Positions 1-37,813 of a DNA stretch of 53,429 nucleotides are shown here, piece after piece. This stretch comes from Bacteroidales bacterium (lineage in GTDB: Bacteria > Bacteroidota > Bacteroidia > Bacteroidales > VadinHA17). The stretch covers positions 1 through 53,429 of the forward strand of contig JAWOIF010000055.1 of assembly GCA_046484805.1 (NCBI GenBank). The letters are read 5' to 3'. The notes beneath the pieces are model-generated. The model made no database searches and was not told the DNA's origin. It was given only the letters and a program-made list of their open reading frames with translations. A program made the position numbers and the translations under genes. Within the stretch, counting starts at the first letter, position 1; each line of letters opens with the position of its first letter.

Positions 1-342
1 CCTGTAAAGAAGTTCTTCCATTGAGAAGGGTTTGGTGAGATAATCATCTGCACCGGTTATGAATCCCTCAATAATATCTTCCTTCTGGTTTCTTGCAGTG
101 AGATAGATTACAGGTGCGGCCGGGTCAATCTTCCGAATTTGCCTGACCAACTCAAAACCATCCATAACCGGCATCATTACATCAATAATGCTGATTGAGA
201 GATTTCCTGATTTGAATCCTTCAAGAGCTTTCTGCCCGTCACCGTAAAGGAGAACTTCATACCCTTTTGCGTTAAGATAATTCTGTAAAAGTGTTCCCAG
301 GTTTTCGTCATCCTCAGCAAGGAGGATCCTTTTTCTTTCCAT
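1..342 (-). CDS. rprY: OmpR-family response regulator (RprY-like), N-terminal receiver domain; truncated by the window edge
   Basis: Not in the ORF track. Manual translation from ATG at 342 gives MERKRILLAEDDENLGTLLQNYLNAKGYEV..., followed by DVMMPVMDGF and GADDY receiver motifs. Overlaps the 3' end of the sensor kinase gene. Confidence 0.85.
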   Translation of the reverse strand, partial: MERKRILLAEDDENLGTLLQNYLNAKGYEVLLYGDGQKALEGFKSGNLSISIIDVMMPVMDGFELVRQIRKIDPAAPVIYLTARNQKEDIIEGFITGADDYLTKPFSMEELLYR

Positions 343-1894
343 GGTCGGAATATTTTGGAATATGTATAATAAACTTCGTTCCTTTGTTAATAGTACTTTC
401 GACCCTTATTTTTCCTCCGTGGCAGTCAATGACCCTTCTGACATAGCTTAGTCCCAGGCCAAACCCCTTTACATCATGAACCCTGCCTGTTGGCACGCGG
501 AAGAATTTGTCATAAATATGCTTAAGATTTTGTTTGCTGATGCCGATTCCTTTGTCCTGTATTGATACGGTAATCGTCCCTCCCCGTGAATGGGTTGAAA
601 TCTTTATCTCAGGCCTGTCGGGAGAGTATTTTATTGCATTATCAATGATATTGGAAACAGCGTTAGTCATATGTACTTCATCGATCGCGACAAGAGGATT
701 TTCTGCCTTATAGTTTTTGATGATCAATACCTGACGCTCGGAGATTTGCAGCTCGAAGCCCATGATTGCCTTGTCAATCAGGAGATGGAGGTCAACAGGT
801 TCAATCTTGAGTCGCAACCTGGTTCTTTCGAAGACGGCCGTCTGAAGAACCTTCTCCACCTGGTATTTAAGTTTCAGCGATTCATCGGATACTATTCTGG
901 CAAGGTTATCTGTGTCTTTGCTCTCATTTGGAATGGTTTTGTCAGAAAGCATCTGCGACGCTAAAAAAATTGTTGAAATTGGGGTCTTCAGCTCATGAGT
1001 CATGTTATTAATGAAGTCACTCCTGATCTCAGACATCTTTTTCTGGCGCAATATTACAGAGAATGTTGCAGTCGAGACCACGATCAGCAGGATCGTGAAT
1101 ATGATCGAAGAGAAGCCGAGCATGCCAATCTGAATGAACTTGTATTGCTTTTCCTTGCTGAAATAGACATGTATCATATTCTGACCCGGTACAGGATCAT
1201 TCGGGAAGAGCTGTCTTAAAAATATGTTTGGACCCGATGAATAGGTGAACCCCGGACTCGTATATACTATACTTGAGTTCCCTGACCTGACAGAAAATTC
1301 ATAATCGAGGTATATGCCAACGTTATTGAATGATCTTCTGAGAAGGCTGTTTATATCATCTGGATTTATCCTTTCACGCAGATCAGGCGTCTCAGCAAGG
1401 ATCTTCTCCATTACATTCTCGAGGTACACTATTTTATTGGAGACTCTCATTACAACTCCGGCCTCCATCGTCTCATCATAGCTGCCAGGAAAATTCTCTG
1501 AAAGATAGTCAGTGAGCATTTCAGGAGAGAGAGTTATTCTGTGTGTAAGATCTATCAGACTGTCTGAACGAAACAGTTCCGCAGGGTCGGTCGTAATGTG
1601 TATTCCGGTCTCAGGATCATAACCGACTATCTTGCCGTAGATTGGCGACTCGGCCGGCAGTATGGCTGTTACTGAATCGGGAGAGGTATCTCCTATCTCT
1701 TTCATGAGCCTGTCCATCAGCTCTTTGCCCTCCATTTCCCTTACCACCGCATCGAGAGCCCTGTTAACCTGGTACCTGAATTGCTGATCATTGATATCAA
1801 TGGCATTTGTGATCCAGTAAACCTGAATGAAAATCAATCCTGAAAGGACAAAGGCAAACAGGATCGCAATTACCAGTATGGTTCTTCTCTTCAT
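314..1894 (-). CDS. rprX: Membrane sensor histidine kinase (RprX-like)
   Basis: Two TM segments, H-box FINNMTHELKTPI, N-box NIIDNAIKY, G-boxes DKGIGI and KGFGLGL; coupled to the regulator gene. Confidence 0.85.
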   Translation of the reverse strand: MKRRTILVIAILFAFVLSGLIFIQVYWITNAIDINDQQFRYQVNRALDAVVREMEGKELMDRLMKEIGDTSPDSVTAILPAESPIYGKIVGYDPETGIHITTDPAELFRSDSLIDLTHRITLSPEMLTDYLSENFPGSYDETMEAGVVMRVSNKIVYLENVMEKILAETPDLRERINPDDINSLLRRSFNNVGIYLDYEFSVRSGNSSIVYTSPGFTYSSGPNIFLRQLFPNDPVPGQNMIHVYFSKEKQYKFIQIGMLGFSSIIFTILLIVVSTATFSVILRQKKMSEIRSDFINNMTHELKTPISTIFLASQMLSDKTIPNESKDTDNLARIVSDESLKLKYQVEKVLQTAVFERTRLRLKIEPVDLHLLIDKAIMGFELQISERQVLIIKNYKAENPLVAIDEVHMTNAVSNIIDNAIKYSPDRPEIKISTHSRGGTITVSIQDKGIGISKQNLKHIYDKFFRVPTGRVHDVKGFGLGLSYVRRVIDCHGGKIRVESTINKGTKFIIHIPKYSDHGKKKDPPC

Positions 1895-1899
1895 TTTTG

Positions 1900-1949
1900 C
1901 AAAAATATACCCAAATAGTCAGAGTTAACACTAATTAACATACTTTAAC
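1900..1949 (-). promoter_or_regulatory. rprXY promoter (-7 box TATTTTTG) with three GTTAA direct repeats at a 10-bp period
   Basis: Minus-strand TATTTTTG at 1907-1900. Plus-strand TTAAC at 1925, 1935 and 1945. Confidence 0.6.
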
Positions 1950-2061: not shown

Positions 2062-2077
2062 TGGCACGTGTTTTGTT
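2062..2077 (+). promoter_or_regulatory. sigma54 (-24/-12) type promoter
   Basis: TGGCACG-TGTT-TTGT against consensus TGGCACG-N4-TTGC(W); spacing exact, one mismatch at -12. Confidence 0.65.
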
Positions 2078-2087
2078 ACATATCAAA

Positions 2088-2170
2088 CAGAGGTTTTTTT
2101 TCATAGGTTAGGTTAGTTTTAGGGTTAACAGAAGAACAGGAGGTGAGCAATCACCTCCTTCTTCTTTTTT
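2088..2170 (+). ncRNA. Putative sigma54-dependent small RNA with an anti-start-codon seed (GibS/FopS-like architecture)
   Basis: Promoter upstream, GT-rich seed GGTTTTTTTTCATAGGTTAGGTTAGTTTTAGGGTTAAC, then a GCAA-loop hairpin with a U tail. No plus-strand ORF explains the terminator. Confidence 0.6.
2138..2170 (+). terminator. Intrinsic terminator (may also act on the converging fabF operon)
   Basis: AGGAGGTGA-GCAA-TCACCTCCT followed by TCTTCTTTTTT. Confidence 0.8.
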
Positions 2171-2187: not shown

Positions 2188-2634
2188 TCAGTGGAGAGGG
2201 ATTAGTTTTTCGAAGATATCCTTATCGATCAATGCCCTTTCAATATTAAAAATACCATTTGTCACTCCGGATTTTCTGACTGATGATGCAAATTCGTTAT
2301 CATCGCACTCATTTTCCGAATCATTGAAGTGAAGTATCAGGTAGTCAATATTGGCAAGCTTCTTTACGAGGCTTATGCTTTCGTAGCGATTTGACACAAG
2401 GGCCGTCCACTTCAAGGGTATTTCCGAAAGATCGCAGAATCTGGCAAAGTTGATTTTATTTCCCTTACCGTCATCAACTACGACTGGTGTATCACTTTTT
2501 AATGATATACCCAGCAGGTTATTGAGTGCAAGGCAGAGCTTGTATGCCGGTTCAGGGAAGACAATCCCGTATATTGAACAGCAGGTGTCGTCTTTTACCT
2601 GAAGTTGGATTTTTCTTATTTTATCACTTCCCAC
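2188..2634 (-). CDS. IPExxxVDY-family conserved hypothetical protein
   Basis: GTG start. YGI..PAYKLCLALNNLLGISL and VKKLANIDYL resemble this Bacteroidota family, which usually lies downstream of fabF/rnc. Confidence 0.65.
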   Translation of the reverse strand: MGSDKIRKIQLQVKDDTCCSIYGIVFPEPAYKLCLALNNLLGISLKSDTPVVVDDGKGNKINFARFCDLSEIPLKWTALVSNRYESISLVKKLANIDYLILHFNDSENECDDNEFASSVRKSGVTNGIFNIERALIDKDIFEKLIPLH

Positions 2635-19036: not shown

Positions 19037-19843
19037 TTATTTTTGGAGGTTGTACTTAACGAGAATGTCAATCAGTGAGATTGATGAATCTTCCATCTGG
19101 TTGGTAAGACTGTCGATTTTTGACAGGATATAGTTATAGAAAACCTGCAGGATGATAGCTACGATAAGACCTGTTACGGTTGTTATAAGAGCAATCTTAA
19201 TACCACCGGCAACCAATGTTGCAGATACGTTGCCTGCTCTTTCGATATTGTCAAACGCAGCGATCATACCGATAACGGTACCCATGAAACCAAGCATGGG
19301 AGCAATTGCGATAAAGAGCGCGATCCATGAAAGGTTCTTCTCCAGGAGACCCATCTGTACACCACCGTATGAGATAATTGATTTTTCAGCAATTTCAATA
19401 CCTTCGTTAGCCCTGTCGAGGCCCTGGTAAAATATGCTGGCCACGGGTCCGCGGGTGTTGCGGCAAACCTCCTTGGCGGCCTCAATACCACCCTCCTGAA
19501 GGGCAGTCTCTATTTTAGCCAGTAATTTATTTGTGTTAGTGGTTGCCAGGTTCAGATAGATGATTCTTTCAATCGAGATTGCAAGACCCAGGATAAGACA
19601 GAGCAGTACTACGCCCATGAAGCCTGCACCACCTTCAATGAAAAGTCTCTTGATTTCCTTGAGGAGCTGGCCACCCTCTTCTTCCTGGAGAAAATCTGTG
19701 GCAGTCTGGGTAACCAATTCCTGTGTCTCGGCAACCTGTTCCACTGCTGTAGTATCAGTCTGCCCTTCCTGAGCATACATGTTTACTGATGCTCCGATGA
19801 AAAGCATCCCAATAACAGCAACAAATGCAAATAATTTTTTCAT
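19037..19843 (-). CDS. exbB: MotA/TolQ/ExbB proton channel protein
   Basis: APMLGFMGTVIGMI and GIKIALITT; N-terminal signal-like extension. Confidence 0.92.
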   Translation of the reverse strand: MKKLFAFVAVIGMLFIGASVNMYAQEGQTDTTAVEQVAETQELVTQTATDFLQEEEGGQLLKEIKRLFIEGGAGFMGVVLLCLILGLAISIERIIYLNLATTNTNKLLAKIETALQEGGIEAAKEVCRNTRGPVASIFYQGLDRANEGIEIAEKSIISYGGVQMGLLEKNLSWIALFIAIAPMLGFMGTVIGMIAAFDNIERAGNVSATLVAGGIKIALITTVTGLIVAIILQVFYNYILSKIDSLTNQMEDSSISLIDILVKYNLQK

Positions 19844-22114: not shown

Positions 22115-23455
22115 CTACACTACACCCTGTGCGATCATTGCATTTGCTACTTTAACGAATCCTCCGATATTGGCTCCGTCAACATAATTGATGAATCCGG
22201 TTTCCTTGGTTCCGAACTTAACGCATGTAGCATGTATGTTCTTCATGATGGTCTGCAGTCGTGAATCAACCTCTTCCCTTGACCAGGGCAGACGCATTGA
22301 ATTCTGTGTCATCTCGAGCCCCGATGTAGCTACTCCGCCGGCATTGGCTGCCTTACCCGGACCGTACAGGATACCTGCATTCAGGAAGACTTCGACGGCT
22401 TCAGGTGTAGAAGGCATGTTGGCTCCTTCAGAGATGCACATACAGCCGTTCTTTACAAGCGTCTTCGCATCGTTTTCGTCGATTTCGTTCTGGGTGGCAT
22501 TCGGCATGGCAATGTCACACTTAATGAACCATGGCCTTTTATCATCGAAGTATTCAACACCATATTTTTCAGCATATTCTGAGATACGTCCCCTCTTGAC
22601 ATTCTTCAATTCCATTACGAACTCAAGTTTCTCCTTGTCTATTCCTTTCGGGTCGTATATGGTACCGTTGGAGTCAGACAGCGTAACTACCTTACCTCCC
22701 ATTTCAGTTACTTTCTGTGTTGCAAACTGGGCAACGTTGCCTGAGCCTGAGATTGTAACTATCTTATCCTTGAGTGTTTCACCCCTTGTTGACAGCATTT
22801 CTGCAGCAAAGTAGGTTGCACCATAGCCGGTAGCCTCAGGCCTTATAAGAGATCCGCCCCATTCAATACCTTTTCCGGTCAGCACTCCCGTGAACTCGTT
22901 ACGGAGTCTTTTATACATTCCGAACATGTAACCAATCTCACGTCCGCCAACGCCAATGTCACCTGCAGGGACATCAGTATCAGGTCCGATATGGCGGAAT
23001 AGCTCGCACATGAAGCTCTGGCAGAATCTCATTACCTCATTGTCAGATTTACCTTTGGGGTCGAAGTCCGATCCTCCCTTGCCACCGCCCATCGGCAGAC
23101 TGGTAAGACTGTTTTTAAAGACCTGCTCAAAGGCCAGAAACTTGAGAATTCCCAGGTTAACGGTGGGGTGAAAGCGAAGACCTCCCTTATATGGGCCAAT
23201 TGCACTGTTCATTTCGATACGGTAACCCTTATTGATCTGAATCTCTCCCTTGTCATCAAGCCAGGGTATTCTGAAAAGAATGACCCTTTCAGGCTCGGCT
23301 ATTCTTTCAAGTATTTTGGCATGACGGTACTTGGGATTCTCATCGATGAAAGGCATGAGCGATTCGGAAACCTCATGGACTGCCTGATGAAATTCGTTTT
23401 CTCCCGGATTTTTGGCCTTAATCATGGCCATGAATTGTTGTACTCTTGGATCCAT
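22115..23455 (-). CDS. gdhA: Glutamate dehydrogenase, NADP(H)-type
   Basis: GPYKGGLRFH, GGGKGG, RPEATGYG and SGSGNVA..SDS; start corrected to MDPRV (ATG at 23455). Cofactor inferred from motifs. Confidence 0.9.
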   Translation of the reverse strand: MDPRVQQFMAMIKAKNPGENEFHQAVHEVSESLMPFIDENPKYRHAKILERIAEPERVILFRIPWLDDKGEIQINKGYRIEMNSAIGPYKGGLRFHPTVNLGILKFLAFEQVFKNSLTSLPMGGGKGGSDFDPKGKSDNEVMRFCQSFMCELFRHIGPDTDVPAGDIGVGGREIGYMFGMYKRLRNEFTGVLTGKGIEWGGSLIRPEATGYGATYFAAEMLSTRGETLKDKIVTISGSGNVAQFATQKVTEMGGKVVTLSDSNGTIYDPKGIDKEKLEFVMELKNVKRGRISEYAEKYGVEYFDDKRPWFIKCDIAMPNATQNEIDENDAKTLVKNGCMCISEGANMPSTPEAVEVFLNAGILYGPGKAANAGGVATSGLEMTQNSMRLPWSREEVDSRLQTIMKNIHATCVKFGTKETGFINYVDGANIGGFVKVANAMIAQGVV

Positions 23456-23592
23456 AGTATGTAATTTGGTTAGTTGGTTTTTATGAGAGGGATAAAAGTA
23501 GAAAAAACAATGAAAAGCAATGTCTGATGTGAAAAAAAAATAGAAAATATGTTTTAGAATAGGAAATGGGAATTGGTGAATTAGCAAATTAG

Positions 23593-23662
23593 CACATTAT
23601 CACATTATCACATTATCACATTATCACATTATCACATTATCACATTATCACATTATCACATT
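23593..23662. repeat. Tandem repeat (CACATTAT)x8 plus a partial unit
   Basis: Eight perfect 8-mers at 23593-23656 plus CACATT; degenerate units extend left to about 23569. Confidence 0.97.
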
Positions 23663-24782
23663 TGATGTAAGCGTTTCCGGGGCAGCATTTTATTGCACCC
23701 TTCAGTTCAAGGGAGAGTAATACCGATGAGATTTTATTAACCGGTTGTCCGTAAAGCTGTGATATCTGGTCAATGGTCAGGCTCTCCTCGCAGGAAATTA
23801 TTCTGAGTAAGTCTGATTCATTTTTGTCAAGGTTTTCAAAAAGCTTTGGTTGCTTTGGCGATAATGATTCGGGTTTTGCCCAGTTCAGGAATTCGCATAT
23901 ATCTGAGGCATTTTCCACCAAAGCAGCGATATTTCTTTTTATCAGCCTGTTGCAACCTCCTGACCAGTTGTCTGTTGGCCTTCCCGGCGTTGCCATTACA
24001 TCGCGGTTATATGAGAGGGCCATTTCAGCTGTGACCAGAGCACCTCCCTTTACTCCCGATTCGACCACCAGCAACGCAGGTGAAAGTCCTGCTATTATCC
24101 GGTTTCTTTTAAGGAAGTTATTTTTTTCCGCCGGGGCATCTGAGATAAAATCGGTAAGCAATCCGCCCCGGGTGACCATTTTTCTGGCGATGGCGGTGTG
24201 AACCGGGGGATATATTGTTCTTAGTCCATGCGCTAGAACAGCAACAGTTTTAATTCCATTATTGAGTGCGGCCTTGTGGGCAGTTATATCGATGCCGTAG
24301 GCCAGTCCGCTTACAATTACCAGGTCGGGAAACATTGCAGCCAGTTGCGATACAAGATCTTCGCAGAGGTCTTTTCCCCTGGTGGTGGCTTTTCTGGTTC
24401 CCACAATACTCAGCATCTTTACGGCGTCAAGGTCGCCATTGCCAAGGTAATAGATCATTACCGGAGAATCAGTGCACTCCTTCAGCCGTTGGGGGTAATC
24501 GTCATCGAGATAGAAGAGGGTGGTGATCTTTTTTGAGGTAACAAAGGCGGCTTCCTTTTCGGCCTGAGCGAGGTATTTTTTGTCAATAACCGATCGTGCC
24601 ATAGTGTCACCAATACCCGGAATTTTTATAAGGTTTCCGTAAGGTTCTCTGAATACTGCTTCAACAGAGCCGGTAGCGCTTACCAGTTTTCGTGCATTGA
24701 TATCACCCACGCCCGGAATAAGGCCAAGGGCAATTTTACAGACCAGGTCATGATTTTGCATTTCGGGAAATGTTAGAGACAT
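23640..24782 (-). CDS. dprA: DNA-processing protein DprA
   Basis: SIVGTR, VSGLAYGID, FLKRNRIIAG, GALVTA and a C-terminal wHTH. The start could instead be the second Met (MQNH). Confidence 0.95.
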   Translation of the reverse strand: MSLTFPEMQNHDLVCKIALGLIPGVGDINARKLVSATGSVEAVFREPYGNLIKIPGIGDTMARSVIDKKYLAQAEKEAAFVTSKKITTLFYLDDDYPQRLKECTDSPVMIYYLGNGDLDAVKMLSIVGTRKATTRGKDLCEDLVSQLAAMFPDLVIVSGLAYGIDITAHKAALNNGIKTVAVLAHGLRTIYPPVHTAIARKMVTRGGLLTDFISDAPAEKNNFLKRNRIIAGLSPALLVVESGVKGGALVTAEMALSYNRDVMATPGRPTDNWSGGCNRLIKRNIAALVENASDICEFLNWAKPESLSPKQPKLFENLDKNESDLLRIISCEESLTIDQISQLYGQPVNKISSVLLSLELKGAIKCCPGNAYIKCDNVIM

Positions 24783-24791
24783 GGTAAAGAT

Positions 24792-24832
24792 AAAAAAAAA
24801 GAGGCTGCCTCAAAGGGGCAACCTCATTTTTT
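24792..24832 (-). terminator. Intrinsic terminator after the second gdh
   Basis: Minus strand GAGGTTGCCCC-TTT-GAGGCAGCCTC followed by T9. Confidence 0.8.
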
Positions 24833-24849
24833 ATTAGCTGATTAGCTGA

Positions 24850-26187
24850 TTAGATTACGCCCATGTCGAGCATTGCGTTTGCAACCTTTAGGAATCCGGC
24901 AACGTTTGCTCCCTTTACATAGTCAACATATCCGTCTTCACGCTTTCCGTATTTCACGCACTGGGCATGTATGTTGCACATGATTTCATGTAGTCTGTTG
25001 TCTACTTCTTCGCGGCTCCAGTTGAGCTTCATTGAGTTCTGTGACATTTCCAGGCCTGAGGTTGAGACACCTCCTGCATTGGCTGCTTTACCCGGGGCAA
25101 ACAGGACTCCTGCCTTCAGGAAAACCTCAACTGCTTCCGGGGTTGATGGCATGTTTGCTCCTTCACAGACGCAGAAACAACCGTTCTTCACAAGTGCTTC
25201 CGCATCTTCCTTGTCAAGTTCGTTTTGTGTTGCACACGGCAGAGCTATATCTACCTTAACTTCCCAGGGACGTTTGCCTTCATGGAACTCAACCCCCTCA
25301 AACTCATACGAGTAAGGTTTGACGATATCCTGATTCGAGGAACGCAGTTCAAGCATGTACTCGATCTTCTTGCCTGATATGCCTTCTGCATCATAGATAT
25401 ATCCGTCAGGGCCGGAGAGTGTAACTACTTTCCCTCCCAACTCGGTTACCTTGAGTGCTGCGCCCCAGGCAACGTTTCCAAATCCTGAAATCGCAACGGT
25501 TTTTCCCATAAATGAATCACCACGGGCGGCAAGCATCTCTTTTGCGAAGTAAACGGTTCCGAACCCTGTTGCTTCGGGACGAATAAGCGAACCGCCCCAG
25601 TTGATACCCTTGCCTGTTAGTACTCCGGTGTGATCACCGGCAAGTTTCTTGTACATTCCGTACATGTAACCAATTTCACGGCCGCCAACACCTATATCGC
25701 CGGCAGGAACATCTGTTTCGGGTCCTATGTGCTTCCACAATTCGAGCATGAATGACTGACAGAATCTCATGATCTCATTGTTTGAACGTCCTTTCGGATT
25801 GAAGTCACTGCCTCCCTTTCCGCCACCCATTGGCAGGGTAGTAAGAGAGTTTTTGAAGATCTGCTCGAAACCGAGGAACTTCAGAATTGAAAGGTTCACG
25901 CTCGGGTGGAAACGGATCCCTCCCTTGTATGGCCCGATGGCATTGTTGTACTGTACCCTGTAACCGATGTTGATATGTACATTACCTTCATCATCGAGCC
26001 AGGGGACCTTGAACATAAAAACACGGTCAGGTTCAACAAGACGTTCAATAATGTTTGCCGATTCGAACTGAGGATTATCATTATAGATCTCCTCAATGGA
26101 TTCGACTACTTCCCTTACTGCCTGCAGATACTCAACCTCTCCGGGGTGTTTTTTTTCGAGGTTGCTCATTAATTTGTCAACGTTCAT
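24850..26187 (-). CDS. gdhB: Glutamate dehydrogenase, likely NAD(H)-type (GdhB-like)
   Basis: GPYKGGIRFH and RPEATGFG; SGFGNVAWG..SGPDG recalls Bacteroides GdhB. Specificity is inferred. Confidence 0.8.
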   Translation of the reverse strand: MNVDKLMSNLEKKHPGEVEYLQAVREVVESIEEIYNDNPQFESANIIERLVEPDRVFMFKVPWLDDEGNVHINIGYRVQYNNAIGPYKGGIRFHPSVNLSILKFLGFEQIFKNSLTTLPMGGGKGGSDFNPKGRSNNEIMRFCQSFMLELWKHIGPETDVPAGDIGVGGREIGYMYGMYKKLAGDHTGVLTGKGINWGGSLIRPEATGFGTVYFAKEMLAARGDSFMGKTVAISGFGNVAWGAALKVTELGGKVVTLSGPDGYIYDAEGISGKKIEYMLELRSSNQDIVKPYSYEFEGVEFHEGKRPWEVKVDIALPCATQNELDKEDAEALVKNGCFCVCEGANMPSTPEAVEVFLKAGVLFAPGKAANAGGVSTSGLEMSQNSMKLNWSREEVDNRLHEIMCNIHAQCVKYGKREDGYVDYVKGANVAGFLKVANAMLDMGVI

Positions 26188-27367: not shown

Positions 27368-27744
27368 TGCACAAAGGTACCAAATTCGGGTATAATCTAT
27401 ATTTATAAGAGCATGATGACCAAAGTTTCATAATCAGAGGTGTTACTCAACTAAGTTTGAAATCATAAACAACATTAGTTAATGTTGATATTCCGGCTTC
27501 GGCCCGGTCAGCAGTTGAAGTTATTAACACACAAACACATAAAGATATCTATCTATATAATAAAATAGATAAAATAATATCAAATCATCTATCACCATAA
27601 TGATATTGTATAAACCATTAAAAAAAGTTAATTTTTCCTATTCAATATGAATTAACAGGTTTTGTGCGACCATTTTTTCATATAATTGTACCCTGAGACC
27701 CTTTCAAACCAATTAACCTATTGATAACTAAAAACAACCGACTT

Positions 27745-30700
27745 ATGAATGAACCTTACCGTATTCGTGTAATGCGCGGATGCAGGATTTCCAGGATTTT
27801 GCTGGCGTGTTTTACAGCGTTATTCTTTCAGATGCAGGTTCTCTCGGTTTATGCTTCTGACGATCCGCTGTACCAGCAGCGTACCATCAGTGGTACAGTA
27901 ACCGATGAGACCGGATCACCGTTCCCTTTTGTAACGGTGTACGTTGATGGTAATACCACAATCGGTAGTATCACAGACGAGAAAGGAGAGTATCGTTTAA
28001 CAGTACCCCAGGGCTCAACATTATGTTTTGCCTTTGTAGGGTACAAGACACTCAAGTTCCCTCTCACTGCATCTGATGTTATGGATGTAAAGATGGAACC
28101 AGAGATGAAGGCCCTTGATGAAGTAGTCGTCGTGGGATTTGGAGAGCAGCGCCGGGCTTCGGTATCAGCAGCTGTTACCACAATTTCCGCAGACGAAATA
28201 ATACAGAGTCCTGTTGCCAACATCACAAATGCCCTCGCAGGGCGGCTCCCCGGTCTTACCACCATTCAGACCGGTGGTCAGCCTGGACTTGATGCCGCTG
28301 CTCTGTATATCAGGGGTAGAGGTACCTGGAACAACGCTGATCCTCTTTACGTTATTGACGGAGTTGAGAGAACATCAGCTATTTTCCAGACCATGGACCC
28401 ATCTGAGGTCGAATCGTTCACAGTACTGAAGGATGCAGCAGCGACCGCAGTTTACGGAACAAAGGGAGCTAACGGTGTTGTGCTTATCAACACCAAGAGA
28501 GGGCAGGAAGGAACAACCACTGTCAGCATAAACAGTTCGGTTACCCTTCAGCAGTTCACACGCTATCCCAGGTTTCTTGATTCGTATGAGAGCCTTAAGT
28601 TATACAATGAAGCTCTTATGAACGACGGACTTGATCCTGTCTACTCGGAGTATGATCTTGAGATGTATCGCACGGGTGCTGATCCTTACCGTTACCCCAA
28701 TACCGACTGGTATGAGCTTATGATGAAGAAGGTAGCACCACAGTACAGAACTTCAGTGAACCTTCGTGGCGGGTCAAGGACGGTCAGGTATTTTGTCTCT
28801 GCATCGTATATGCGTCAGGAGGGTCAGTTGAAGACGCAGCCGGGCAGGATTTATAATCCGAGATTTGCTTATGACAATTACCGTTTTACTTCCAATGTTG
28901 ACGCGATTATTACCAATGCTTTCACACTTACCTTCGAGCTTGCCGGCAATCTGTCCGACAGAAGTGATCCGTGGGAGCAGATGGGTATATTCCATAATAT
29001 GAACAGGCTGGGTCCATGGGTGATCCCGGCTACCAACCCCGACGGCTCTTACGCCGGTAACTCAGAGTTTCCTGATTTCAATCCTCTTTACCTTATTCAA
29101 ACGAGAGGTAATGATACCAGGCTGAACAACAGTATAACAAGTGCTATCAAGCTGGCATTCAACCTTGATAAATACGTGAAGGGTCTGAGTATCAACGGAA
29201 GGGTTGCCTATGACTCGAACTTTGGTTATTACAAGGGATGGTCTGAGACACAGTCAACATTCCAGCTGATCTCACGGCCCGGAAGAGCTGACAGGTACAC
29301 ATCATATCTTACTCCATCTTTCTTCTCTCCCTCCTACAGTACGATGACTGCACAGAGGACAGTTGATGCTTTGGGTAATATTGTATATAACCGCCGTTTC
29401 GGTGATCATTCACTAAGGATACAGGGTGTGGCTAATATTTCTGAGTACAGAACAGGCACAGCCATACCATATAACTCTGTAAGTTTTATTGCAAGGGCCA
29501 ACTACGGTTACAAGAACAAGTATAATCTTGAGGCCAACACCGCCTACAGGGGTTCAGAGAACTTTGCTCCCGGAAGGAGATTTGGTTTGTTCCCGTCTGT
29601 ATCACTCAGCTGGAATATCCAGGAAGAGTCTTTCATGCAGTCGCTTACGATGATAAATGTAGCGAAGCTTCGTGCATCCTACGGTCGTTCGGGTAGTGAT
29701 TATGCCGGAACCAGGTTTATCTACAAAGAGGGTAAGTGGACTACAAACACCACAACACGTGCCTATTTTGGCGAAGAGCTGGGAGCGTCACTGGGAGGCT
29801 CATATGAGCCTGATATTGCCAACCCGCTGGCTACCTGGGAGACTGCCGAACAGATAAACCTTGGTTTCGACCTTGTTGTCTTCAGGAACAGGCTCTCAAT
29901 GTCATTTGACAGATTCTTTGAAAGAAGGACCGGTATTCTGCAGACACCAAGAAGTGTTCCCGGTATTCTCGGTATTGGCACGCCGGACCTTAATATTGGT
30001 GAGACATCACGTGAAGGCTGGGAGTATGATGTAACATACAGGCACGAACTGGCAAGCAGGGTAGTATTGACCTTAAGACCAAATATAGCCTATTCTGTTA
30101 ATAAGGTGGTTTTCAGGGATGAACCTGAAGATGCCGATTGGTGGAGTAAGCAGGAGGGTAAGCCTATAGGTCAGTTTATGGGTTACCAGGTACTTGGTTT
30201 CTTTAAGGATCAGGCAGACATTGATAATTCACCCGTACAGCAGGTAGGAAGCACACCGATACCTGGTGATTTTAAATATATGGACTACAACGGTGACGGA
30301 GTTGTCAATGAGTATGACAGGGTACCGATTGGTTACACTACCATGCCCAGATTTACCTTTGGTACAACATTGGGTATGAATATTGGTAATGTCAACTTCA
30401 GTGTCCATTTCCAGGGAGCTGCCCAGTCAAGCATTTATGTCTCGCAGATGCTTATGTGGGAATTCTATAACAGGAGTAAGGTTCAGGAGCATCATCTGGA
30501 AAGATGGACTCCTACCACACATGAGACTGCAACCTATCCGGCACTTCATATCGGAGCTATAAGTCAGAATCATGTGCAGAACTCTTTCTTCATCCAGGAT
30601 AATACCTACCTGAGGCTGAAGACAGCAGAAATTGGCTACACGATTCCCAGTACTTTGATAAGAAGAGTGGGACTGAAGGGTTTACGGCTGTATCTGAGTG

Positions 30701-30822
30701 GTACGAACCTTTTGACATGGGACAGGTTTAAGGTGCTCGACCCGGAAGTTAGATCAGGTACCACAACCCAGTGGTATCCGCAGTCAAGGAACTACAGTTT
30801 TGGGTTTAACCTTAATTTTTAA
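27745..30822 (+). CDS. SusC/RagA TonB-dependent transporter 1
   Basis: N-terminal extension, plug motif LKDAAATAVYGTKGANGVVLINTKRG, PGDFKYMDYNGDG and terminal F. Start is ATG 27745 or TTG 27721. Confidence 0.95.
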   Translation: MNEPYRIRVMRGCRISRILLACFTALFFQMQVLSVYASDDPLYQQRTISGTVTDETGSPFPFVTVYVDGNTTIGSITDEKGEYRLTVPQGSTLCFAFVGYKTLKFPLTASDVMDVKMEPEMKALDEVVVVGFGEQRRASVSAAVTTISADEIIQSPVANITNALAGRLPGLTTIQTGGQPGLDAAALYIRGRGTWNNADPLYVIDGVERTSAIFQTMDPSEVESFTVLKDAAATAVYGTKGANGVVLINTKRGQEGTTTVSINSSVTLQQFTRYPRFLDSYESLKLYNEALMNDGLDPVYSEYDLEMYRTGADPYRYPNTDWYELMMKKVAPQYRTSVNLRGGSRTVRYFVSASYMRQEGQLKTQPGRIYNPRFAYDNYRFTSNVDAIITNAFTLTFELAGNLSDRSDPWEQMGIFHNMNRLGPWVIPATNPDGSYAGNSEFPDFNPLYLIQTRGNDTRLNNSITSAIKLAFNLDKYVKGLSINGRVAYDSNFGYYKGWSETQSTFQLISRPGRADRYTSYLTPSFFSPSYSTMTAQRTVDALGNIVYNRRFGDHSLRIQGVANISEYRTGTAIPYNSVSFIARANYGYKNKYNLEANTAYRGSENFAPGRRFGLFPSVSLSWNIQEESFMQSLTMINVAKLRASYGRSGSDYAGTRFIYKEGKWTTNTTTRAYFGEELGASLGGSYEPDIANPLATWETAEQINLGFDLVVFRNRLSMSFDRFFERRTGILQTPRSVPGILGIGTPDLNIGETSREGWEYDVTYRHELASRVVLTLRPNIAYSVNKVVFRDEPEDADWWSKQEGKPIGQFMGYQVLGFFKDQADIDNSPVQQVGSTPIPGDFKYMDYNGDGVVNEYDRVPIGYTTMPRFTFGTTLGMNIGNVNFSVHFQGAAQSSIYVSQMLMWEFYNRSKVQEHHLERWTPTTHETATYPALHIGAISQNHVQNSFFIQDNTYLRLKTAEIGYTIPSTLIRRVGLKGLRLYLSGTNLLTWDRFKVLDPEVRSGTTTQWYPQSRNYSFGFNLNF

Positions 30823-30834
30823 GAGGAAACGGAT

Positions 30835-32676
30835 ATGAAACATCTATTTAAATATATAATAATTCTGGCCATTGTCGCAGGGTTCTCACTTACATCGTGT
30901 GATGAGTTTCTTGATCAGGCTCCGGCCGGAGAGGAGACCAGCGAATATATATTCGAGGATTACCTCAGGGCAGCCAGGTATATGGATCTTCTCTATTACT
31001 ATACACCTCCGCTCTGGGAAGCTGCAAGAGGTTTCGGGACCTACGGTTTTATTGAGACCGGCACCGATATGGCAAGGTATAATGCCTCCTATGGAACTGC
31101 CAATCAGTCAATAAATCTGGGTAACTGGAGGGCAAGTGTTGCATCTTCCGAGATCAGCAGATGGGGAGACCTGTATGCCCAGATCAGGAGAGCACATATG
31201 TTTCTTGACAATATCGATCTTTTTCAGAATGAACCAACTTTCGAAGGAGAGAGTCGTAAGGTGACCATGAGGGGAGAGGTTCATTTTATGATTGGGTTCT
31301 ATTATTTCGAATTGCTTAAGAGATATGGGGGTGTACCCCTTGTAAAAGAGGTATTATCACTTGATTCTGATTTCAAGATTCCAAGAGCTTCATATGATGA
31401 TGTAAAGGAATATATACTTGACAATCTTGATATTGCCTATGATCTTGTTCCTGATGAGTGGCCAACAGACAATTATGGCAGGGTAACCAAAGCGCAGGTA
31501 ATGGCACTAAAGAGCCGGCTTCTGCTCTATGCCGCCAGTCCGCTTAACAATCCGACCAACGATCAGGCCCGCTGGCTGGAAGCTGCCGAGGCTTCCAGAG
31601 ACCTTATCGACTATCTTGATGAGAATAATATGCATCCTCTCTTTCACGACTACCAGGAGATATTTATGAGATCATGGTCCAGTGATGTTCCGGAGATTAT
31701 AATGCCAAGACACAGGGGCGCCAGTACCGTCTCCTTTAACAGCAATCTTATTCTTTACGGACAGGGTCTGCCACATTCAGATTTCCAGGCTTATGGTAAC
31801 ACTTCGCCAACCCAGAATTTCGTTGACAGGTTTGAGGTTATTGAGTACGACGCAGGTGGCAATCCTGTTGGATCGGTTCCATTTGACTGGAATAATCCTG
31901 ATCATGTCGCAAATATCTATGATAACCGCGACCCCAGATTCTATTATACTGTTCTGTACAATAATCAGTATTGGATAAAGAGGAATATTGAGGTATGGCG
32001 CGATGGCGACAACTGGGGAAAGGATTACAATCCCAAGAACCACTTCTATACCAGAACAGGGTATTATATGAGGAAATACTGGCCGCGTGAGTGTCAGGAC
32101 TATTCAAATGCCGGATCGGCACGGGTTACCAGCTTCTATATCCGAACAGGCGAGATCTATCTCAACTATGCCGAAGCTATGAACGAGCTTTACGGTCCTG
32201 AAACTGATAATCTCGGCAGAGCCTCAGGATCCAAAACGGCTCTTGATATTATCAACAGGCTTAGAGACAGGCTGGTTTGTCCTGCAAGTGAGGATATTTC
32301 CGGTCAGAGTGACCCTTATTACAACGTTTGGTTCGAAAGAAACTGGAACGATAATTTCCCTGTACTTCCTGATGGAATGCCGCACATCCCAACAGGCCTG
32401 TCGAAGGATGATTTTCGTGAAAGATGCCTGAATGAGAGAGCCATTGAGATGGCCTTCGAGCAGCACTACTGGTTTGATGCCTTAAGGCTGAAGAGGGGTG
32501 AAGATCGTATCGGAGGAACAATCTATGGTGTTGACGTTGTTAAGGATGGTGATAACTTTATATATACCAGGAAGGAAGTTGAGCAGAGGGTGTTTGATCC
32601 GTCACGAATGTATCTCTATCCCATTCCGCAAAATGATGTTTATATCATGGGTATAGACCAGAACCCCGGATGGTAA
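30835..32676 (+). CDS. SusD/RagB lipoprotein 1
   Basis: Lipobox LTSC, YGGVP, RDPRF, ERAIEMAFE and QNPGW. Confidence 0.95.
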   Translation: MKHLFKYIIILAIVAGFSLTSCDEFLDQAPAGEETSEYIFEDYLRAARYMDLLYYYTPPLWEAARGFGTYGFIETGTDMARYNASYGTANQSINLGNWRASVASSEISRWGDLYAQIRRAHMFLDNIDLFQNEPTFEGESRKVTMRGEVHFMIGFYYFELLKRYGGVPLVKEVLSLDSDFKIPRASYDDVKEYILDNLDIAYDLVPDEWPTDNYGRVTKAQVMALKSRLLLYAASPLNNPTNDQARWLEAAEASRDLIDYLDENNMHPLFHDYQEIFMRSWSSDVPEIIMPRHRGASTVSFNSNLILYGQGLPHSDFQAYGNTSPTQNFVDRFEVIEYDAGGNPVGSVPFDWNNPDHVANIYDNRDPRFYYTVLYNNQYWIKRNIEVWRDGDNWGKDYNPKNHFYTRTGYYMRKYWPRECQDYSNAGSARVTSFYIRTGEIYLNYAEAMNELYGPETDNLGRASGSKTALDIINRLRDRLVCPASEDISGQSDPYYNVWFERNWNDNFPVLPDGMPHIPTGLSKDDFRERCLNERAIEMAFEQHYWFDALRLKRGEDRIGGTIYGVDVVKDGDNFIYTRKEVEQRVFDPSRMYLYPIPQNDVYIMGIDQNPGW

Positions 32677-32698
32677 TAATAACTAACTTAAAAATTTG

Positions 32699-35600
32699 AT
32701 GAAGATGTCTTTAATCAAAAATCATATAAAAAACGGAATAATCGGCAAGTCATTGCTGGTAGCTTTTATTTCCGTTTTCGCATGGATGACATGTTTGCCG
32801 GAGGTAAATGGTCAGGGCCGTCAGAACCCGATAACAGTAGACGGGGTTGTGAGGTCTGCTCAGAATCTTCCTGTAATGGGAGCGACAGTATATCTGCAGG
32901 AGTCGACCACATTTACTACCACCGATGAATTCGGGAACTTCACATTAGAGGTTCCCGGTGCTAACTCAGTTATCAATATCGAGGCAGAGGGTTTCGAACC
33001 CCTCTCCGTAACAATTATTGATGACAAATTTCTCGATCTGACCCTTGATTTTTCAGTTGCCGGTCAGGGTATTAGTGACAGAGTATTCGTTGCCTGGGGT
33101 GTATCTGACCGTCGTAGTAATGTCGGTTCGATATCAGCTATCTCTCACGATGAACTCAGAAAGAGTCCGGTTATGAATCTGGCAACGGCAGTTTCAGGTC
33201 GTTTGTCAGGCTTCACCGTAGTACAGGGTTCCGGAACCCCGGGACTTGAAGATGTTGAATGGCGTATAAGGGGTATCAGAACCCTTGAGGACGGAGGCAT
33301 GAACAATATGGCAAAAGGAGGTGTCGGAGCACCAACAATCATTGTTGATGGTTTTGAACGTGATTTTACCGATTTTGATGCCAGTGAGATTGAATCGATA
33401 AGTGTTCTCAAGGATGCCTCTGCCACTGCTTTATACGGACTACGTGGTGCAAACGGGGTGATCCTTGTTAATACCAGGAGAGGTCAGGCTAACAGAAGGA
33501 CAATTGACGTTGAGGTTAGTAACGGTATAGTTGTGCCAACAAGGCTTCCAAATTTCCTTGATGCCTACGATTATGCCACACTTTTCAATGAAGCCAGATT
33601 AAATGATGGTCTCGATGCTCCTGGCAGCCCCTTCTACAGTGAGACTGATCTTCAGAAATTCAGGTCAGGATCGGATCCTCTTACCCATCCTGATGTAGAT
33701 TTCTACGATGAGTTTCTCAAGAAGTATACCCATCAGAGGAAAGCTGCACTGACACTTTCCGGCGGTAATAATATTGTAAGGTATTTTGTGTCATTTGCAT
33801 ACAATAATCAGGGTGGCTTGTATGACAGGACCGACGAGGGAACCCTGTTTACCACCAAGACCAATTACACAAGGTACAACACGAGGGTTAATCTCGATAT
33901 CGCTGTTACAAAGCGTTTTTCAGCCGCTTTCAATCTGGCCGGAAGGATAGAGGACCGCAGGTATCCATACGATAGTGAGGGCAATATCTTTAACGACCTC
34001 TCAAACACACCCCCGACGGCTTATCCGTTGTCGTTCACAGGTATCGACCCTGCTCTTAACAAGGAGATATTTATGCTGGGCGGGAACTCGACATACACAA
34101 CCAATCCTCTGGGACGTTTGTCATACAGAGGTTTTCGCGAAGATACCAGACGTTATTATCAGATAGGAACAAAGCTGAGTTATGACCTGGGTGATATTAC
34201 GGAAGGACTGAAGCTGAACTTTGAGTTCAATGCCGACGGCTATAACTACTTCAGGGTTTCACAGTATATGAACTACCAGGTATGGGACAGGGTTGTACAG
34301 CCTGATAACTCGATAGCGTATGTTTCATTCAATACTCCTTCCTCGCTTTCGAGATCTTATGGAACTGACACCTATACCAGTACCGGTTCGAATCTCTATC
34401 TGACATGGGACAGGACCTACGGTGATAATGGCTTTAAGGTTATTGCACTCTGGAGAAGGTGGACAACTGTATTTCCGCAGGCCAACCAGCCAGACCAGAA
34501 ACTGGAGGATTATGCAATCAGGGCTAACTATTCATATAAGAACAGGTACTTCCTGGAGGGGAATTTTGCCCTTTCCGGAAGCGAGAACTTTTTCATGACC
34601 AACACTCCGAGGATACCCCTGCCTGCATTTGCAGCGGGATGGATTATCTCAGAGGAGGATTTCATATCAGAATCTGACTTTCTACAGTTTCTTAAGTTGA
34701 AGGCTTCATGGGGTATAACAGCCAATCATGATTATACCTTCCCTGATCCTAATGGTATTAAATACCGCTATGCATACAGGAACAGGTGGTGGAGTCAGAA
34801 CAGTCAGCAGGCATTTGGCGCCGCACTTGCTTACGTTAGTCCTATTGTAAGGGAAGGTGTTGTACCAAATCCTGATATAACTGCCGAAAAGGCAATGATG
34901 ACCAATATAGGTATTGAGGCCGGTATGCTTGACAACAGACTCTCTTTTACCACTGAAGTATGGCATGAGAAGCGTTACGATATTTTTACAAGGGGTGTAG
35001 GTAGTATTCCTCTTGCATTCGGAGCACTTTCATCAAACCTGCCAATCGAAAATGAGGGAATAGTTCTGAGCAAGGGAATTGAGACTACACTGGGATGGAG
35101 AGACAATGCCAGCTCAAGCTTTGGTTACTGGGTTAACGGTATGGTTGATTTCTGGACAAACAAGATAGACTACATGGCGGAACCCTACAAGGAGGATCCT
35201 TACAGGGTAGAAACCGGAGGACTTGTACGTCAGAATTACGGCCTTATTGCTCTGGGTCTTTTCAAGAACCAGGATGAGATCGACAATAGTCCGGAACAAC
35301 TGTTCGGTCCTTATCAGCCCGGAGATATCAAATACAAAGACATGAATGACGATGGAGTGATCGATGCCAATGATTATTCGGCAGTCGGCAGAAGCACTTT
35401 CCCGCAGCTTTCATATTCACTTGATATGGGTATTCGTGCCGGTAATTTTGATTTCTCCGTTCTTCTTCAGGGAAGTTCAATGAAGAGTTACTACCTGAAT
35501 AATAACGTTATCCGCGCTTTCACCAGTAATGGTAAGATTTCAGATTTTGCCCTTAACAGGTATACCGATGAAGCAAGCTGGGCCACTGCCGATTATCCGA

Positions 35601-35878
35601 GGCTTACGACTGTCGCCAATGATAACAACTGGAGAATCTCTACCTTCTGGCTCAGGGATGCAGCATTTCTACGGGTCAGGAACCTGGAGATCGGTTATAA
35701 TCTCCCCATGGAAGCCGCACGCAAAATGGGGATGTATGGTATGAGGATATATCTTAACGCATATAACCTTCTGTCACTGGATAACTTCAAGACTTTTGAC
35801 CCTGAAGACCCGAATGCCGGTATAAGCAAATATCCGATGACGAGCATTGTAAACCTGGGTGTCAACCTTAAATTCTAG
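32699..35878 (+). CDS. SusC/RagA TonB-dependent transporter 2
   Basis: LKDASATALYGLRGANGVILVNTRRG, PGDIKYKDMNDDG and terminal F. Confidence 0.95.
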   Translation: MKMSLIKNHIKNGIIGKSLLVAFISVFAWMTCLPEVNGQGRQNPITVDGVVRSAQNLPVMGATVYLQESTTFTTTDEFGNFTLEVPGANSVINIEAEGFEPLSVTIIDDKFLDLTLDFSVAGQGISDRVFVAWGVSDRRSNVGSISAISHDELRKSPVMNLATAVSGRLSGFTVVQGSGTPGLEDVEWRIRGIRTLEDGGMNNMAKGGVGAPTIIVDGFERDFTDFDASEIESISVLKDASATALYGLRGANGVILVNTRRGQANRRTIDVEVSNGIVVPTRLPNFLDAYDYATLFNEARLNDGLDAPGSPFYSETDLQKFRSGSDPLTHPDVDFYDEFLKKYTHQRKAALTLSGGNNIVRYFVSFAYNNQGGLYDRTDEGTLFTTKTNYTRYNTRVNLDIAVTKRFSAAFNLAGRIEDRRYPYDSEGNIFNDLSNTPPTAYPLSFTGIDPALNKEIFMLGGNSTYTTNPLGRLSYRGFREDTRRYYQIGTKLSYDLGDITEGLKLNFEFNADGYNYFRVSQYMNYQVWDRVVQPDNSIAYVSFNTPSSLSRSYGTDTYTSTGSNLYLTWDRTYGDNGFKVIALWRRWTTVFPQANQPDQKLEDYAIRANYSYKNRYFLEGNFALSGSENFFMTNTPRIPLPAFAAGWIISEEDFISESDFLQFLKLKASWGITANHDYTFPDPNGIKYRYAYRNRWWSQNSQQAFGAALAYVSPIVREGVVPNPDITAEKAMMTNIGIEAGMLDNRLSFTTEVWHEKRYDIFTRGVGSIPLAFGALSSNLPIENEGIVLSKGIETTLGWRDNASSSFGYWVNGMVDFWTNKIDYMAEPYKEDPYRVETGGLVRQNYGLIALGLFKNQDEIDNSPEQLFGPYQPGDIKYKDMNDDGVIDANDYSAVGRSTFPQLSYSLDMGIRAGNFDFSVLLQGSSMKSYYLNNNVIRAFTSNGKISDFALNRYTDEASWATADYPRLTTVANDNNWRISTFWLRDAAFLRVRNLEIGYNLPMEAARKMGMYGMRIYLNAYNLLSLDNFKTFDPEDPNAGISKYPMTSIVNLGVNLKF

Positions 35879-35881
35879 ATT

Positions 35882-37777
35882 ATGAAAAAGTATCATAAAA
35901 TAATAGAAGCTATTAAAAAACCTTCCGTTGTAATTGCTGCCCTGCTGATGATGGCAGCCTGTGAAAGGCCCTACCTGGAGCCCTGGCCGCCTGATGGCGC
36001 CAGGACCCCGGAGGATGTTTGGAACTACTACTACTTCACACGCGGGTTCCTCGATGCACTATATGCCGACCATATGACAAATGTCTATTATAACGACGTT
36101 CAAGGTTATGGTATGCTCGCTTCAGCAACTGACGAAGCTGTTCATTCAGACCTGCAGGGGGAGGTAAGAAACTTTACCAATGGTATCTGGAACCCCACTA
36201 ATGTTCCGGAGGTTCGTTATGGCGGACCGTGGACATCATCCAGAATGCTAGCTTCACCATGGGATAATTCCTTCAGGGGAATCAGAAGGGTAAATATTTT
36301 CCTTGAGAATGTTGACAACTCTGTTTTCATAGATGATGTCACCAATCCAGACAGAGCCTTTGACCGTACTCACGGAAAGGGACAGGCCTACTTCTGGAGG
36401 GCCTTCCTTATGTTCGACCTGCTTCAGAAGTACGGTCCCTTCCCTATATCAACCGAGAGTCTCAGCCTTGATGATGATATCTTTGCTCCGAGGAACACAC
36501 TTGATGAGTGCTTTGAGCAGATAATAACAGACTGTGACAGTGCTATTGCCAATCTTCCATTGCTCTGGACTGACAATAAGTGGTACAGAGCTAATCTTAC
36601 CGCAGCACAGGCACTCAAATCAAGGGTTGCTCTCTACTATGCCAGTCCCCTCTATCAGGGTGACTTCGAAACTTTCGGTCTTGAGAAGAATACGGTAGGT
36701 AATGTTGACAGGTGGATTGATGCAGCCAATTATGCAAAGGACTGTATTGATGATAACAGCTTTTATAATTTGATGAGCGTTACAAGGTTTAACAGACCTT
36801 TCTCAAATACCAACACCTATAATAACAGAGTTGGATTTGTTAGCAGTACGTCTCAATATGAGATTATCTTCTCAACACCTATGTACTCAACATACCAGTA
36901 TCTGAATCATTATATGAATATGCCTGCCGGTGTTGAGGGCTGCCGCGGATATACCAATCCCACCCAGGAGATGGTTGATGCCTATGAGGTGGTGCCTCTC
37001 GATGGAAGCGGCAAACCTGTAACCGGAGCAACATCAGAGGTGTTTGACTGGGATAACCCGGTACATGCCGATAATCCGTATGCAAACAGGGATCCCCGCT
37101 TCTATGCCTCAATAAACTTCAACGGATATTTCTGGGGTACCTCTTCTGCAAGTGGTTACTATATTGATACATATGAGGGAGGGGTTCACCGTCAGCCTAG
37201 TATCCCGACATCAACAAAAACGGGATACTACTACAGGAAGTTCATGCATGAGTCATTCTATGCCTATGCAACCGGCAGGTACAGCAGTCCTACCAGCGGA
37301 AGGATAGTAAGCCGCCTCGCCGAGATTATTCTCAACTATGCAGAGGCAATGAACGAAGCTTATGGACCTGACGTACCACATACCGAGGGCGACCTGAGGA
37401 TTGGCGGATCGACAGCACGCGAAGCTGTTAATCTGATCAGGGCCAGGGTAAATATGCCTCCTGTTCCACTGGGACTCAGTCAGGCTGAGATGCGCGAAAG
37501 GATCAAGCATGAGCGCCGTGTTGAGCTGGGTTTTGAAGGACACCGGTTTTATGACCTGAGGCGCTGGAAAGAGGGCGAAAAGCTTGGCGGACCGGTGCAT
37601 GGTGTAAGGATAACACCTACCGGATTTGATGTGGACAACAGGCCAATAGGTTTTACCTACGACGTAGAAGAGGTCGAAACCAGAGTCTGGGCTGACAAGA
37701 TGTACTGGTGGCCGATACCATATTCAGAAATAGTGAAATATGAAGGCAAGCTTTCTCAGAATCCGGGCTGGAACTAA
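35882..37777 (+). CDS. SusD/RagB lipoprotein 2
   Basis: Lipobox MAAC, RDPRF, ERRVELGFEGHRFYDLRRWK and QNPGWN. Confidence 0.95.
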   Translation: MKKYHKIIEAIKKPSVVIAALLMMAACERPYLEPWPPDGARTPEDVWNYYYFTRGFLDALYADHMTNVYYNDVQGYGMLASATDEAVHSDLQGEVRNFTNGIWNPTNVPEVRYGGPWTSSRMLASPWDNSFRGIRRVNIFLENVDNSVFIDDVTNPDRAFDRTHGKGQAYFWRAFLMFDLLQKYGPFPISTESLSLDDDIFAPRNTLDECFEQIITDCDSAIANLPLLWTDNKWYRANLTAAQALKSRVALYYASPLYQGDFETFGLEKNTVGNVDRWIDAANYAKDCIDDNSFYNLMSVTRFNRPFSNTNTYNNRVGFVSSTSQYEIIFSTPMYSTYQYLNHYMNMPAGVEGCRGYTNPTQEMVDAYEVVPLDGSGKPVTGATSEVFDWDNPVHADNPYANRDPRFYASINFNGYFWGTSSASGYYIDTYEGGVHRQPSIPTSTKTGYYYRKFMHESFYAYATGRYSSPTSGRIVSRLAEIILNYAEAMNEAYGPDVPHTEGDLRIGGSTAREAVNLIRARVNMPPVPLGLSQAEMRERIKHERRVELGFEGHRFYDLRRWKEGEKLGGPVHGVRITPTGFDVDNRPIGFTYDVEEVETRVWADKMYWWPIPYSEIVKYEGKLSQNPGWN

Positions 37778-37813
37778 TAATTAGTACTTGTGACAACAAA
37801 GAAGATTAATTCT

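Follow-up and report, generated by a model that had tools for sequence, protein, structure and literature searches.

FopS of Bacteroides thetaiotaomicron (Rfam family RF04319) is described in PMC11697453 as a set of 14 paralogues, with 12 to 15 copies per genome, which are transcribed from canonical primary-sigma (sigma-ABfr) promoters and are reported within the Bacteroidaceae. Experiments reported there show that FopS binds the start regions of susC mRNAs and represses these, and both FopS and GibS are bound by the protein RbpB (PMC11697453). GibS (RF04182), which is approximately 145 nt long and contains two inner hairpins, has both an R2 seed and a 5' R1-type seed that pairs over start codons, and is driven by the non-housekeeping PM2 promoter (PMC7366714). 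A further Rfam family, BTnc231 (RF04180), is approximately 150 nt in length, incorporates additional hairpins and opens with a UUUUCAUAG seed. In the enterobacteria, the Hfq-dependent sRNAs MicA, RybB and CpxQ, which are controlled by sigma-E or CpxR, lower envelope protein synthesis during envelope stress, while the sponges SroC and RbsZ are short RNAs which mimic a target and pair with the seed of its regulator. To our knowledge, the Bacteroidota make use of neither Shine-Dalgarno initiation nor Hfq. Their sigma-54 regulon is known mostly from prediction.

Anatomy of the sRNA unit and its relation to FopS

The window analysed here, namely the whole stretch of 53,429 nucleotides, incorporates a unit with a comparable seed at positions 2062-2170 of the plus strand. 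A sigma-54-type -24/-12 promoter box (TGGCACG-N4-TTGT; 2062-2076), with its two elements at 2062-2068 and 2073-2076, places the predicted transcription start at approximately 2088-2090. It is followed by a predicted FopS/GibS-like sRNA of approximately 80 nt (2089-2170), delimited by a match to RF04319 (2093-2171) and by alignment. The single-stranded seed (2093-2129) consists of a U-run, a CAU complementary to the start codon (2102-2104) and an extension of GGUUAG repeats, and is succeeded by an intrinsic terminator (2138-2170) comprising a hairpin with a GCAA loop (2138-2159) and a U-rich tail (2160-2170), which may also end a convergent minus-strand transcript. The 5' half is open in the predicted fold, while the 3' hairpin is stable (z -3.4). 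The promoter, seed and terminator proposed in the initial annotation are thus all in place, with the seed recurring in 65/66 loci picked by the neighbouring kinase. On the plus strand of the unit, the only open reading frame (ORF) of at least 20 amino acids starts at 2143; the minus strand contains ORFs of 34 and 24 codons. The GNRA loop, which had been presented as a feature, is incidental and unconserved in an alignment of 25 sequences.

The match to FopS extends over positions 1-71 of the 71 positions in the RF04319 model, but its score (36.3 bits; E 6.7e-4, obtained at a relaxed threshold) falls below the gathering cut-off of 56, which is likewise reached by none of eighteen related loci. 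At the gathering threshold, only tRNAs were detected by Rfam in the window and in these eighteen loci, and no GibS match was found in the window at E values of up to 10. The relationship to FopS and GibS suggested in the initial annotation is supported by this full-length, sub-threshold RF04319 match and the R1-type seed. The unit shares with FopS a length of 70-80 nt, a 5' seed that is single-stranded, has UUUUCAU as its core and ends in GGUUAA, a single terminator directly after the seed, and pairing at susC start regions, which is predicted for the window unit. It is distinguished by its GGUUAG-repeat extension, its fixed position beside rprXY, a linked mirror RNA and one clear copy rather than 12-15; in the source genome, which is 86 % complete, a single match to the FopS model was found below E 0.1, with a few weak seed-like terminator leaders elsewhere.

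The promoter differs as well. Among thirty inspected loci matching the FopS model, the twenty-two above the cut-off all carry a primary-sigma-type box (22/22), and none carries a sigma-54 box (0/22). GibS has in common with the window unit its R1-type seed pairing over start codons and a promoter that is not housekeeping, but is longer and has two inner hairpins and a second seed, unlike the single hairpin of the window unit. It was rejected as the sigma-54 member, since the single homologue examined has a different motif upstream (GAAC...TGTT) and no sigma-54 box. BTnc231 shares its opening seed with the window unit, but is likewise longer, and the one homologue inspected has a primary-sigma-type box. 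Given that homologues of FopS and GibS are driven by other promoters, the window unit is considered a variant rather than a member of FopS: it would work like FopS, yet differs from the family in score, promoter and copy number. Literature searches yielded no published sigma-54-driven member of the FopS family and no sponge, and neither is mentioned in the portions available of a 2026 review (PMC13750123), of PMC10994844 and of a 2026 preprint. In many of the FopS homologues (loci L161-L181), the promoter is also preceded by a palindrome, TATGTT...AACATA. We take this palindrome to resemble the site of Cur (BT4338).

Conservation, genomic context and promoter

Conservation was assessed in loci chosen on the basis of the neighbouring kinase protein alone. 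Seventy-three loci were examined, mostly derived from the 76/121 genomes of the family with a kinase match at E <= 1e-125, and seven without a recognisable kinase motif were dropped. In 65/66 of the remaining loci, the seed occurs at the same place, and an exact TGGCAY-N5-TTG box is situated 23-26 nt before the CAU in 63/65 seed-bearing loci, a fixed spacing which upholds the sigma-54-type box of the initial annotation. Sixteen consecutive columns of the seed are invariant in the 25-sequence alignment, most members of which were picked by the seed pattern. The terminator shows two-sided changes at all nine pairs, a level attained by 0/500 shuffles and above all slid controls, with the pair counts favoured by construction, as the structure was taken from the window sequence. 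RNAalifold returned no consensus pairs for the 25-sequence alignment, probably owing to gaps in the stem. The conserved sRNA gene is very probably real.

The same layout occurs beside unrelated genes in records of the Rikenellaceae, Muribaculaceae, Cryptobacteroides, Marinilabiliaceae and Chitinophagaceae, as identified by a GTDB pattern scan with at least 120 rows among the matches listed, many of them by chance. Its distribution is patchy, with the exact promoter-plus-seed pattern in 7/400 genomes from across the phylum, about two of these being convincing. In Chitinophagaceae-type genomes, a related seed is present in three to nine exact copies, under a mixture of sigma-54 and primary-sigma promoters (L223-L242). 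Twenty copies from three such genomes represent sRNA paralogues, with a sigma-54 box in ten and a primary-sigma box in three (by regular expression), and the 5' ends indicated by the two kinds of box nearly coincide. The genera g2, g15 and g20 and one g11 locus have a tandem arrangement, in which the first seed RNA is succeeded by another that is provided with a terminator of its own (L008, L009, L010, L012, L274, L276-L283, L286 and L287). Furthermore, a scan of the viral collection IMG/VR gave thirty-nine matches, twenty-three of them distinct, and one (contig L327) clearly has the promoter-seed-terminator layout. Elsewhere in the source genome, tandem GGTTAGGTTTA repeats precede a terminator on contig C221 (approximately 19480-19620, minus strand) with a CTTTCAT word upstream, possibly a longer paralogue of the seed family. 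U/G-rich seed-like stretches also occur before terminators in 3' UTRs on contigs C76 (near 3268, minus strand), C58 (17381-17472, plus strand) and C16 (near 15596, minus strand), one of them behind a small secreted protein, and it is possible that these are 3'-UTR sRNAs.

The sRNA is divergent from an rprX-like sensor histidine kinase gene (314-1894, minus strand; Pfam HisKA and HATPase_c domains) and the 5' part of an rprY-like response regulator gene (1-342, minus strand). For the latter, RprY is the best NCBIfam family, with the fragment scoring below the cut-off, in agreement with the rprXY assignment made previously. On the other side, an IPExxxVDY-like gene (2188-2634, minus strand; below the curated cut-off) is convergent, which means that the sRNA unit cannot serve as a leader for the gene that lies downstream. 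Activation of sigma-54 is not a property of OmpR-type regulators. Since RprY is not of a sigma-54 activator type, the link between the sRNA and rprXY is perhaps positional only. Three TTAAC direct repeats with a 10-nt period (1925-1949), a pattern present in 60/63 loci against 0.5 expected, are likely an RprY (OmpR-type) operator. In Porphyromonas gingivalis, the regulator is described as binding its own promoter (PMC3646045).

Elsewhere in the family, in other genera, the seed and terminator are located in the 3' UTR of a gene for a secreted, highly charged protein which is divergent from the kinase gene. The sigma-54 box falls inside the ORF of this protein in 6/6 loci for which ORF and UTR were read (L014, L015, L016, L019, L023 and L025), while in L017 and L024 the box is present and the host ORF absent. 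No informative Pfam family was found for these secreted host proteins of the sister clade. Loss of the host gene would be a plausible route to the stand-alone sRNA. The sister-clade copies, each at the 3' end of a gene which encodes a secreted protein and diverges from the sensor operon, are in this respect comparable with CpxQ in cpxP. Two adjacent glutamate dehydrogenase-like genes, the second of them presumably of this kind, also occur in the window (22115-26187).

Transcription is inferred to proceed from the -24/-12 box. The source genome encodes RpoN and three strong matches to the activator domain, one of them with GAFTGA and another with GSFTGA. A relaxed search for sigma-54 boxes in this genome recovered twenty-two intergenic sites, against three in a backwards control, and signal-peptide genes lie downstream of 15/22. 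Among the genes preceded by such a box are dnaK, identified by motif, and what we take to be lon, hsp20 and thioredoxin genes. Chaperones and proteases are predicted to be under sigma-54 control in the Bacteroidota (PMC12316311). The -12 element lacks the canonical C in many units, its fourth base being T in 21, A in 15 and C in 13 of 49 units. A primary-sigma-like box is furthermore found just upstream in genera g10 (17/19) and g13 (18/19), so that sigma-54 is perhaps not the sole input; this box is absent in g1, g2 and g11 (0/21).

Predicted targets and the mirror unit

Pairing of the seed with start regions was scored for 2039 ATG genes, of which 762 were flagged as encoding signal peptides, with both gene starts and signal peptides taken from a rough in-house predictor. 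A register-fixed score was adopted, because free duplex energies gave many off-register structures. Signal peptides occur in 42 of the top 50 targets, against 762/2039 overall, a bias which derives mostly from pairing of the U-run with MKK/MKR-type codons. The seed extension favours true starts over internal ATGs (high scores in 34/700 and 6/676, respectively). Across all genes, the letter order of the 3' part of the seed is only marginally above shuffles, with 3/40 composition-matched shuffles performing as well; much of the pairing is thus compositional and single targets cannot be called. The SusC/TonB-like genes form a set of only fourteen, one or two of them short, and 13/14 are placed among the 270 best-scoring genes (p 3.6e-6 in comparison with the remaining signal-peptide genes). 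In the leaders of these SusC-like genes, the real seed order scores 17.3 against 9.4 +/- 2.2 and exceeds 200/200 shuffles. Of the broad targeting of exported and outer-membrane protein starts put forward initially, the predicted bias towards signal-peptide and SusC-like genes is retained, but the genome-wide order specificity barely rises above chance.

Within the window, the short seed matches listed in the initial annotation are present at their respective genes, and their ranks differ considerably. The best predicted target is the susC1 start region (27705-27760, plus strand), which ranks 48/2039 by the register-fixed score and 12/2195 by duplex energy, followed by susD2 (66) and DUF1735 (154). 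By contrast, gdhA (1347 and 1475) and exbB (591) are ordinary, as is susC2 (1540 of 2039). Several short seed matches are common, with 52/2039 ATG genes beginning with ATGAAAAAA. The window includes a tandem susCD-susCD locus (27721-39121), in which the leader of the second susC matches the seed poorly. Elsewhere in the genome, a 15-nt perfect complement of the seed extension is situated on contig C39 (minus strand, before 8090), directly before a predicted GTG start, and is the best match by duplex energy. The gene with this GTG start presumably encodes an M23 peptidase. In a cross test of seeds against leaders in four Chitinophagaceae-type genomes, the twenty exact matches inspected were sRNA paralogues and not targets.

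A second unit, complementary to the seed, follows rprY outside the window, a short way past window position 1. Contig C157 of the source genome overlaps window positions 1-605 at 95.9 % identity, probably as a strain variant, and carries the remainder of rprY. Here, a candidate decoy RNA of approximately 95 nt (C157:1044-950, minus strand; L037) is located 3' of the rprY stop codon, on the strand opposite to rprY. It sits behind the stop codon of what we assume to be a lepA-like gene and on the same strand as that gene. This mirror unit pairs with 20/21 bases of the 3' half of the seed and is the best sRNA partner among 259 terminator leaders of the genome, scoring -28.2 where the leaders average -9.5 (standard deviation 3.4). 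It has its own terminator and resembles a SusC leader minus the start codon: no ATG follows the core in 41/41 mirror units, and the CAU and U-run of the seed have no complement in the mirror RNA. A TAnnYTHG promoter box occurs 49-62 nt upstream of the core in 40/42 units, against 6.0 expected. Mirror units are present in 43/63 readable relatives, in most of which sRNA and mirror unit share a contig, and missing at the site in 20/63. They are gained or lost as one block, the gap measuring 117-193 nt with the unit and 6-102 nt without it. The cognate duplexes between sRNA and mirror unit outperform all 100 shuffles in 38/41 cases. Within the genus, some of the anti-seed can be sequestered by intramolecular pairing with the 5' part of the mirror unit.

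The pairing with 20/21 seed bases, the missing AUG, the separate promoter and terminator and the presence in 43/63 relatives make the mirror unit a candidate sponge, and on this comparative evidence it may be a sponge of the seed RNA, a reading to which we give slightly less than even weight. Like SroC and RbsZ, it is short, target-like and complementary to the seed of a regulator, but it differs from these in having its own promoter and in bracketing the same operon as its partner. A substantial chance, although somewhat further below even, is accorded to the view that it is instead a long lepA 3' UTR, a protein-binding decoy or a relic of the leader of a lost gene. Its position, co-oriented with the lepA-like gene and behind the stop codon of that gene, agrees with this, as does the partial preference for the cognate partner: mirror units prefer their own seed type in g1, g10, g13 and g8 but not in g2, g11 and g16 (4/7 genera, with kin not independent). 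Covariation in the mirror terminator is weak and does not exceed a control slid by -1. The unit is also dispensable, with no convincing relocated copy in five genomes lacking it at this site. The promoter box, the block-wise gain and loss and the shuffle-beating cognate duplexes, however, speak against the non-sponge view. The mirror unit matched no Rfam family. Across 120 genomes from the order, a decoy model recovered four borderline matches, all of them lacking strong complementarity, and it recovered none in five sister-clade genomes in a run without a positive control, and no mirror unit was found after rprY in four genomes of other families. A second, weaker anti-seed unit precedes a terminator on contig C7 (5495-5609, minus strand; L319), with a duplex energy of -23 kcal/mol and a model E value of 0.09.

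Proposed mechanism, rival explanations and significance

The mechanism that we regard as probable, from the sequence comparisons above, is that of an approximately 80-nt trans-acting, sigma-54-dependent RNA which blocks translation of exported proteins, and SusC-like proteins above all, under stress, and which is reset by the mirror RNA. Heat or envelope stress would lead to sigma-54 transcription of the RNA from the -24/-12 box. The U-run would then pair with codons 2-4 of mRNAs for MKK/MKR signal peptides, which are rich in A, and the CAU with the AUG, while the GGUUAG repeats would pair with (C/U)UAACCU motifs in the leaders. Pairing across the AUG would block translation of exported-protein mRNAs, in particular those of SusC-like transporters. 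The response would be reset by the mirror RNA encoded after rprY, which has no AUG and would titrate the seed. The stress role is inferred, as the same box precedes dnaK and the apparent lon, hsp20 and thioredoxin genes. Such an RNA would be comparable with MicA, RybB and CpxQ as an sRNA linked to an alternative sigma factor or two-component system that cuts envelope protein synthesis, but it has no sequence relation to these and is associated with sigma-54 rather than with sigma-E or CpxR.

An RNA that is real but acts mainly through a protein of the RRM-1/RbpB type, or solely by pairing with the mirror RNA, with the start-region match being a by-product of U/G-rich composition, is unlikely. 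The binding of FopS and GibS by RbpB (PMC11697453) would accord with a protein-mediated role, and two RRM-1 genes are encoded in the source genome. The weak genome-wide order specificity and the rank of the mirror RNA as best partner among the terminator leaders point in the same direction. Against this, the SusC-like leaders are order-specific, the CAU and U-run are invariant despite being uncomplemented by the mirror RNA (no AUG in 41/41), and 20/63 loci keep the seed where the mirror unit is absent. Less likely still is transcription by another sigma factor, either primary or ECF, with the -24/-12 box being secondary: the non-canonical -12 base, the additional primary-sigma-like box in two genera and the primary-sigma boxes of the FopS homologues would fit this explanation, but an exact box at a constant distance is found in 63/65 loci and persists within coding sequence in six sister-clade loci, and the extra box is lacking in three genera (g1, g2 and g11).

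It is very improbable that the functional strand is the minus strand, in which case the sequence would represent an idealised short-peptide start (2104-2000) or an rprX leader element, and the hairpin merely the terminator of an acpP-fabF-IPExxxVDY transcript. A 34-codon ORF does begin at the ATG complementary to the CAU, and a terminator is predicted at the hairpin for either strand. The ORF from this ATG, however, varies from 4 to 114 codons over 49 units (those of 148 pattern matches which passed the terminator filter, at least one of them falsely) and measures 34, 18, 23, 20, 7 and 5 codons within the genus. With a length so poorly conserved, the minus-strand peptide, which the initial annotation had named as the refuting alternative, is rejected. 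A primary-sigma-type -7 box of the Bacteroidota kind (1900-1907, minus strand), called with what we take to be its TAnnTTTG consensus, lies just before the rprX start codon, which makes an rprX leader an unlikely role for the anti-seed strand. The occurrence of the unit beside unrelated genes also argues against the minus strand, and the promoter and U tract point to the plus strand, the same strand as in the validated FopS RNAs.

The preferred reading, of a sigma-54-driven repressor of exported-protein translation, can be set in a broader picture that is tentative and rather doubtful. According to this, rprXY would be bracketed by an RNA switch, consisting of the sigma-54 stress sRNA, which would recognise the general SD-less start signature shared by mRNAs of exported proteins, and an AUG-less sponge that mimics a SusC leader and has a housekeeping promoter, the stand-alone sRNA would derive from a lost secreted host gene of which the internal sigma-54 promoter and the 3'-UTR RNA were retained, and FopS and GibS would form one branch of a phylum-wide superfamily of anti-start-codon RNAs rewired by promoter swaps. 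With this unit, the range of the seed family widens to include distant Bacteroidales and the Chitinophagaceae, and the family becomes linked to sigma-54. A repressor arm is thereby suggested, by which envelope-protein synthesis would be cut while chaperones are induced, and the mirror RNA provides a concrete, testable sponge candidate for the seed family.
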